Part shown: positions 62,208-63,297 of the stretch, in pieces
How positions within the stretch are numbered: position 1 is the first letter of the stretch
Layout of the letters: each line of letters opens with the position of its first letter
NCBI GenBank assembly: GCA_000165345.1
Contig: CM000431.1
Location: 1-64,000 of the forward strand
Length of the DNA: 64,000 bases
Direction: 5' to 3'
Made by a program: the position numbers and the translations under genes
Notes under the pieces: model-generated
Seen by the model: the letters and a program-made list of their open reading frames with translations, nothing else
Databases searched by the model: none
What the model was told of the DNA's origin: nothing

Positions 62208-62501
62208 AATGAATAAAAATATTAATTATAAATAAAAGAGACAGAATTAAGCTGGGATAGTTCATTCATTTCAAAATTGTATATTAAAATATAAATATAA
62301 AGACTTATTATTCTATGTATTGTAAAATCAAGTTGTTATAGTAGTAATTCTGGAAGCATATTACAATAAAGAAGGATTCTAAAATCATAGTTCCAAATCA
62401 GAGTCACTTTTGAGTCTTTTTGAACTTAAACAATTGATTTCATGATCTTGATTCAATTCGACATTGGAAGACTCTATATGTGGTCTTTTACTGCCAGTAA
62501 T

Positions 62502-63297
62502 ATTAGATGCAGTTTCTGAGCAACTTAATTCAGTTTCAGAATGGTCGGGGTCTTCTATAATAATAGGACAAGAAACATTTACAAGCTATAAAAAAAAAAA
62601 AAAGTAATAAGAAAATAAGTAATAAAGATAAAATTGTTCAGTTCTTGAAAGAACTGAAAGATATTCGAGTTAAACATACCTTATCAAGAGCATAAAGAAA
62701 GCTTTTTGTGTTATTATAGCAATCTGGGAACAATAATAATTCACAAATTCTTTGAATTGTAGGAGGAAAATCAGTATGACAGTCAAAAGCTTCGAGAATA
62801 TCCATTAAAAAGTTCTCCAAAATAGACTTTCCACAATCTGGACAAGAATATTCAATATTTTTGTGGCGTGGAGAAACTTCATCTAAATGAGAGTTTTCTA
62901 AATTTGAATGTAGTTTGCAATTATATGGTAAATAGTCAAGCTGATCTAATCCTCCATATTTTTCAAACATTTGGTTACTTTTCAGAACAATTTCTTTCCT
63001 TAAAGCTTTTTTCAAGACCTTCCATTCAATTATTTCATTCTCATCTACATTAGATTTCATATTAAAACTTTTATCAACCCCCTCTTTTGATACTCTCTCA
63101 ATCATACTAAGATCATCAAAGTCTAAACTTGGTATTAATTCTTCTCTTGAATCAATTTTAATATTATCGGTACCGGTATTAATATTTTCGGTATCTATTT
63201 TGTGATCATGATCAAGATCTTGGAAAGAATTTGATTGATTATTGAAATGAAGAATCTCGGTATCATGGGTATCTTTAGTAGTAGAGATTGATTCCAT
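62502..63297 (-). CDS. PPP4R2: PPP4R2-like protein phosphatase 4 regulatory subunit; probable two exons join(62680..63297, 62502..62585) with a 94-nt intron
   Basis: IEWKVLKKALRKEIVLKSNQMFEKY and FPPTIQRICELLLFPDCYNNTKSFLYALDK match human PPP4R2 [22 protein letters not shown] and [37 protein letters not shown] donor sits exactly after ...LDK (62679..62674), followed by a polypyrimidine tract and AG at 62587..62586. Exon 2 (LVNVSCPIII...) matches PPP4R2 NVMVVSCVYP. The unspliced ORF is 62638..63297. Confidence 0.6.

Follow-up and report, generated by a model that had tools for sequence, protein, structure and literature searches.

Conserved phase-0 intron of the PPP4R2-family gene cgd3_240 in Cryptosporidium parvum: recovery of the current gene model from raw sequence

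The DNA analysed here, hereafter the window, is a 64,000-nt stretch of Cryptosporidium parvum chromosome 3 with a GC content of 30.7%. Its minus strand carries cgd3_240, a two-exon gene for a PPP4R2-family protein, which begins with an ATG at 63297..63295 and closes with a TGA at 62387..62385, so that the gene ends at 62385 and not at 62384, as had been proposed originally. Over the 3.1 kb compared, gene included, the window is identical to CP044420.1 of the IOWA-ATCC assembly (GCA_015245375.1; Baptista et al. 2022). The convergent neighbour on the plus strand (53934..62207) is an uninterrupted ORF of 2757 aa, the stop codon of which lies 177 nt from that of cgd3_240. Syntenic orthologs of this giant ORF (2568-2763 aa) were called in all the loci compared except a short contig (L007), and these orthologs show at most weak or faint matches to the Pfam family eIF3_p135 (CLU-like). 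The upstream neighbour in eight of nine loci is a gene for a Metallophos protein phosphatase of 633-886 aa, with kelch repeats in all models but that of C. felis; C. serpentis has a different upstream neighbour. In C. parvum the phosphatase gene lies upstream of 63297 and beyond the end of the window at 64000, and is seen at positions 1..815 of locus L008. A regulatory-subunit gene of protein phosphatase 4 (PP4) thus usually adjoins a catalytic phosphatase gene from a different family, and synteny around cgd3_240 is largely kept among the loci compared.

Exon 1 of cgd3_240 (62680..63297, minus strand), identical in sequence to the CP044420.1 gene, comprises codons 1-206 and ends in ...KSFLYALDK. 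The last base of the Lys206 codon AAG is at 62680 and the donor starts at 62679, giving the 5' splice site AAG/GTATGT (donor hexamer 62674..62679; slashes mark splice junctions). The following 94 nt (62586..62679) form a spliceosomal GT-AG intron of phase 0 with a GC content of 20%, which is seen in the sequence and is present in the CP044420.1 annotation. It contains a polypyrimidine tract of 14 consecutive T (62590..62603), followed by ATAG, and closes with the 3' splice site AG (62586..62587; TATAG/CTT). GT and AG ends, a consensus-like donor hexamer and a pyrimidine-rich tract, the features by which GT-AG introns are recognized, are all present. Exon 2 (62385..62585) comprises codons 207-272 and the TGA stop; it opens with the octapeptide LVNVSCPI (62562..62585, codons 207-214), identified in a 22-sequence alignment as the Cryptosporidium version of a PPP4R2 core motif that follows an invariant Lys, and carries close to its C-terminus the basic patch KRLK (62409..62420, residues 262-265), which recurs in most orthologs.

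When read without splicing, the ORF that starts at 63297 continues past ...KSFLYALDK as VCLTRISFSSFKN and terminates at an in-frame TGA within the intron (62638..62640), yielding a 219-aa product with the C-terminal end ...YALDKVCLTRISFSSFKN; this tail and the stop at 62638 were confirmed on the minus strand as originally described. Splicing gives ...YALDK/LVNVSCPIIIEDPDHSETELS..., and with 62680 joined to 62585 the frame runs on as LVNVSCPIIIEDPDHSETELSCSETASNITGSKRPHIESSNVELNQDHEINCLSSKRLKSDSDLEL to the TGA at 62387..62385, for a total of 272 aa. Removal of the intron hence results in a continuous, conserved frame, and its retention in a stop after 13 codons and an unconserved tail. The spliced peptide had been quoted as far as ...ELSWLRNCI, of which the last six residues (WLRNCI) are wrong because one base was slipped; the real sequence reads ...ELSCSETAS..., and the true exon 2 continuation is ...ELSCSETASNITGSKRPHIESSNVELNQDHEINCLSSKRLKSDSDLEL, followed directly by the stop codon.

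The intron is alike to typical Cryptosporidium introns (PMC4637869, PMC8744675) in its length of 94 nt, its GC content of 20% and its GT-AG ends: C. parvum introns average 84-99 nt with a GC content of 22% (PMC4637869, Table 1). In the same RNA-seq re-annotation the proportion of C. parvum genes with introns rose from 4.3% to 10.8%, and such genes were reported to average 2.6 exons, compared with two in cgd3_240 (PMC4637869). The poly-T tract is 14 nt long in the window and in CP044420.1, and 13 nt long in another C. parvum sequence, CM109963.1 (GCA_048859185.1), for which it is the sole difference across the 913-nt gene. Either a homopolymer length polymorphism or a sequencing error could account for this difference, which is harmless given its location in the intron.

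In the current public annotation the intron is already known, and its detection here is a rediscovery of the deposited gene model. In CP044420.1, cgd3_240 occupies a 913-nt span and has a 272-residue product, from which it follows that the 94-nt intron is annotated there; the IOWA-ATCC gene (QOY42371.1) has the same locus, DNA, span, protein and 94-nt intron, with no difference. The intron finding is thus correct and ordinary, because the current annotation of the same sequence already has it. In a protein collection search, the spliced 272-aa product matched deposited C. parvum proteins with 100% identity over 100% of its own length. Its 90% identity cluster includes the C. parvum accessions QOY42371.1, WKS76763.1, WRK31256.1 and KAL5369370.1 and UniProt F0X410 ('Cgd3_240 protein'), as well as the spliced C. 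hominis, C. meleagridis and C. tyzzeri orthologs, which are 272-273 aa long; 'Protein phosphatase 4 core regulatory subunit R2' is among the source names in this cluster. Two unspliced 219-aa models also fall into it, one for C. parvum Iowa II (XP_625337.1, from 2004) and one for C. hominis TU502 (XP_666329.1); among the C. parvum models, only the superseded XP_625337.1 corresponds to the unspliced ORF. According to the paper that describes the annotation of IOWA-ATCC (PMC8744675), every intron in it has RNA-seq support, a general statement made for the annotation as a whole. A search of literature main texts for 'cgd3_240' found no mention, and in the supplement of PMC4637869 it appears solely in a table of C. 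hominis/C. parvum identity and dN/dS (0.959 identity), with no intron information. Among the records of the 272-aa protein there is no Logan (read-run assembly) source, and no intron-less contig was found.

Statistical considerations argue for the same exon structure. Exon 2 is an open frame of 66 codons in a region where a random codon has a chance of about 7.4% of being a stop, so that the probability of its being open by chance is about 0.006 analytically, and about 0.005 by simulation (107 of 20000 shuffles of exon 2 were open); its remaining two frames are interrupted by 6 and 7 stops. Enumeration of the GT..AG pairs around the site gave 157, of which only eight yield 240 aa or more. The proposed pair, donor 62679 and acceptor 62586, has the longest product of all (272 aa) and is also the only one of these eight with a consensus-like donor (GTATGT). 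Combined with any other acceptor, donor 62679 yields fewer than 240 aa in C. parvum. The seven other solutions of at least 240 aa were rejected for weak donors (GTTCTT or GTTTAA) and a lack of conservation.

Conservation of the intron was followed in nine lineages, namely C. parvum, chipmunk genotype I, C. canis, C. felis, C. ryanae, C. xiaoi, two lineages represented by read-run assemblies, and C. serpentis. The last belongs to the gastric clade and shares a 90% protein cluster with 233-aa models of C. muris and C. andersoni, and the other eight are intestinal. In all nine, intestinal and gastric alike, a GT donor directly follows the same Lys codon AAG (pattern AAG/GTNNGN), and at this codon boundary the orthologs have AAG/GTAAGT, GTGAGT or GTAAGC, mostly GTAAGT, in contrast to the GTATGT of C. 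parvum cgd3_240. The acceptor is YAG/CTY or AAG/CTT in eight loci and TAG/CTG in C. serpentis, and the start of exon 2 reads L-[VI]-[NCS]-[VI]-[SA]-x-P throughout. The introns, all of phase 0, measure 56, 74, 76, 77, 93, 94 (C. parvum), 100, 101 and 112 nt, thereby covering all three residues modulo 3. Position and phase are accordingly conserved across the nine lineages while intron length and sequence drift. The 198-nt length of exon 2 is kept in the two closest lineages, to which its identity (0.81/0.78) is near that of exon 1 (0.82/0.81), while the intron, which is full of indels, has an identity (0.71/0.68) near that of the 3' UTR (0.69/0.65). Such an exon-like exon 2 next to a UTR-like intron reads as the signature of an old, genuine intron. 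Together with the exact match to the deposited 272-aa proteins, this nine-lineage conservation bears out the original prediction of a 94-nt intron with the GTATGT donor after LDK at 62679 and the acceptor at 62587-62586. A basic patch near the C-terminus is present in most orthologs (KRLK, KKMK, KRMK, KRPK, KRFKK, KRPKK), and C. parvum and C. canis share K262 and K265. The KRLK patch resembles a nuclear localisation signal and may have a role in nuclear import.

The spliced protein matches the PPP4R2 family (PF09184), regulatory subunit 2 of PP4, at residues 137-216 with 36.9 bits (E 3.8e-09; gathering cut-off 27.4), and the unspliced protein also exceeds the gathering score, with 36.0 bits at residues 137-209. 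Splicing extends the reach on the profile from position 125 to position 132, a small gain, and the match as a whole spans profile positions 54-132 of 282, most of it within exon 1. A search of 1.84 billion representative sequences with a profile of two spliced Cryptosporidium proteins returned 34 proteins at E <=0.001, in many of which the match crosses the junction column. An alignment of 22 sequences was assembled from C. parvum, C. canis, C. serpentis and 19 distant proteins, of which 21 of 22 independently match the Pfam PPP4R2 family. K206 is invariant in this alignment, and in 20 of the sequences (the 19 distant proteins and C. serpentis) it is followed by [LVM]-[VL]-x-V-[ST]-[ST]-T-I, for example in EKLVNVSSTI and DKMVNISSTI. 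The motif [ED]-K-[LVM]-[VL]-x-V-[ST]-[ST]-T-I is matched by DK/LVNVSCPI in the spliced product only. Against the columns of these 20 sequences, in an alignment built with the spliced sequence included, the mean BLOSUM62 score is +11.1 for the spliced LVNVSCPIII, -3.8 for the read-through VCLTRISFSS, and -8.1 for other 10-mers of the same protein; the claim that splicing rescues a conserved motif missing from the read-through form is thereby upheld. The parallel drawn with the 'VSC' of human PPP4R2 picked out the right segment but is probably one residue out of register, the human 'VSC' being presumably offset by one residue from the Cryptosporidium 'VSC'. A second core motif, P-[FP]-T-[IL]-Q-R-x-C-E-L, is present as PPTIQRICELL, with P178, Q182, R183 and E186 invariant in all 22 sequences. 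Both signatures of the PPP4R2/Psy4 family (PFTIQRxCEL and EKLVNVSSTI) hence have counterparts in cgd3_240, in PPTIQRICELL and (K)LVNVSCPI. The distant members include transcriptome proteins (from Echinamoeba exundans and from another TRINITY set) and a Cyanophora paradoxa gene model; since the transcriptome-derived proteins carry the motif, it is contiguous in mature mRNA elsewhere in the family.

A search of PDB sequences with the Cryptosporidium protein and with human PPP4R2 found no PPP4R2 structure. An AlphaFold2 model computed on the 22-sequence alignment has a mean pLDDT of 66.5, with a core at >=90, and shows a helical N-terminal core in which the helix formed by residues 197-209 spans the splice junction. 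Over residues 201-210 pLDDT averages 94, and over residues 211-220 it averages 67; the rest of exon 2 is of low confidence and probably disordered. As modelled, exon 2 would supply the last turn of the core helix, a short conserved hydrophobic segment, and a flexible tail ending in the basic patch. The C-terminal tail of animal PPP4R2 proteins is much longer than that of cgd3_240.

Compared to the 19 non-Cryptosporidium family members, the Cryptosporidium proteins have an insertion of ~50 residues in the core, which is absent from all 19 as aligned. In C. parvum it contains, at residues 127-155 (62833..62919, minus strand), the pattern Y-x-C-x2-H...C-x2-C with a variable spacer (YNCKLH...YSCPDCGKS). 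The pattern is conserved in all eight intestinal-clade orthologs, and a search for it in C. serpentis did not find it. The insertion has weak Pfam zinc-ribbon matches (HVO_2753_ZBP, E 0.014; zf_UBZ, E 0.044), and may be a lineage-specific zinc knuckle.

From these sequence comparisons, cgd3_240 is almost certainly a two-exon PPP4R2 gene in which a phase-0 GT-AG intron undergoes ordinary constitutive splicing. The pre-mRNA would lose the 94-nt intron (62679..62586) by use of the GTATGT donor, the 14-T tract and the TATAG acceptor, joining Lys206 of exon 1 to Leu207 of exon 2 to give the 272-aa protein. Splicing would complete the last helix of the PPP4R2 core and add the family motif (K)LVNVSCPI, along with a 58-residue, mostly disordered tail that includes the conserved basic patch. 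If the intron were kept, translation would stop 13 codons in, producing a 219-aa protein without the LVNVSCPI motif. By analogy to other R2 subunits, the cgd3_240 protein would be expected to bind the PP4 catalytic subunit.

The alternative that fares best, itself very unlikely, takes the intron as real but substantially retained, possibly in a stage-regulated manner, so that a 219-aa R2 protein lacking LVNVSCPI and the basic tail coexists with the full-length form. Nothing observed speaks in its favour. An in-frame stop does lie within the intron in all nine lineages, but the retained peptide and its length are unconserved, which argues against selection on any such product, and PMC8744675 lists only three putative alternatively spliced genes for C. 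parvum as a whole, under CPATCC identifiers. Its stage-specific version, a regulated switch between the full-length R2 and the 219-aa form without LVNVSCPI and the basic patch, is a shade less probable again; if true, it would modulate PP4 activity or localisation.

That there is no intron at all, the 219-aa ORF (63297..62638) of the 2004 annotation being the true product and the downstream open frame a coincidence, is extremely improbable. It draws on the deposition of XP_625337.1 and XP_666329.1 as the 219-aa ORF and on the location of the bulk of the Pfam match in exon 1. Against this, the read-through tails, which stop after 2-35 codons, are unrelated between species, whereas both the sequence and the length of exon 2 are conserved, and in nine lineages an acceptor in the right phase precedes it; the family motif follows the invariant Lys in the spliced product only, and the 219-aa model was itself replaced by later evidence-based annotations. 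Just as improbable is use of the same donor with an acceptor further downstream, the arrangement of the deposited C. felis model, which joins ...FALDK to TLNSDSE... and skips LINVSCPIITEEFK: no such acceptor gives a product of at least 240 aa in C. parvum, the skipped segment is the family motif, and in C. felis itself both the upstream acceptor and the codons for L-[VI]-N-V-S-C-P-I are conserved, so that its model is more likely a prediction error.

For C. parvum, constitutive splicing of the 94-nt intron adds nothing to what is available, as the reference annotation and UniProt already carry the exact spliced model; the result illustrates that a real intron can be recovered from raw sequence. 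In practice it is of use for cleaning up annotations: the RefSeq entries XP_625337.1 and XP_666329.1 are truncated read-through models, and the spliced forms are the ones to use when PP4 regulatory subunits are compared across apicomplexans. Annotators have not been unanimous, since an unspliced form was deposited in these two entries and in the ortholog models of chipmunk genotype I, C. ryanae and C. xiaoi.

Several of the ortholog models differ from the conserved splicing pattern. The C. felis model uses an in-frame acceptor 42 nt downstream (L003 2505..2602), with the conserved acceptor and the motif both present in the DNA. For chipmunk genotype I (L001 2634..2733), the 235-aa model is left unspliced and reads through into the intron. 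The deposited C. ryanae and C. xiaoi models end in ...YALDKVS, reading through into the intron, and this truncation costs the public models over half of the protein. Use of the conserved splice site predicts exon 2 ORFs of 273 aa in C. ryanae (intron 76 nt; L004 2709..3605) and 331 aa in C. xiaoi (intron 77 nt; L005 2769..3841), which are homologous to one another from end to end (BLASTP E 1e-25) and have the predicted C-terminal ends NPKRFKKI and NPKRPKKI, respectively.
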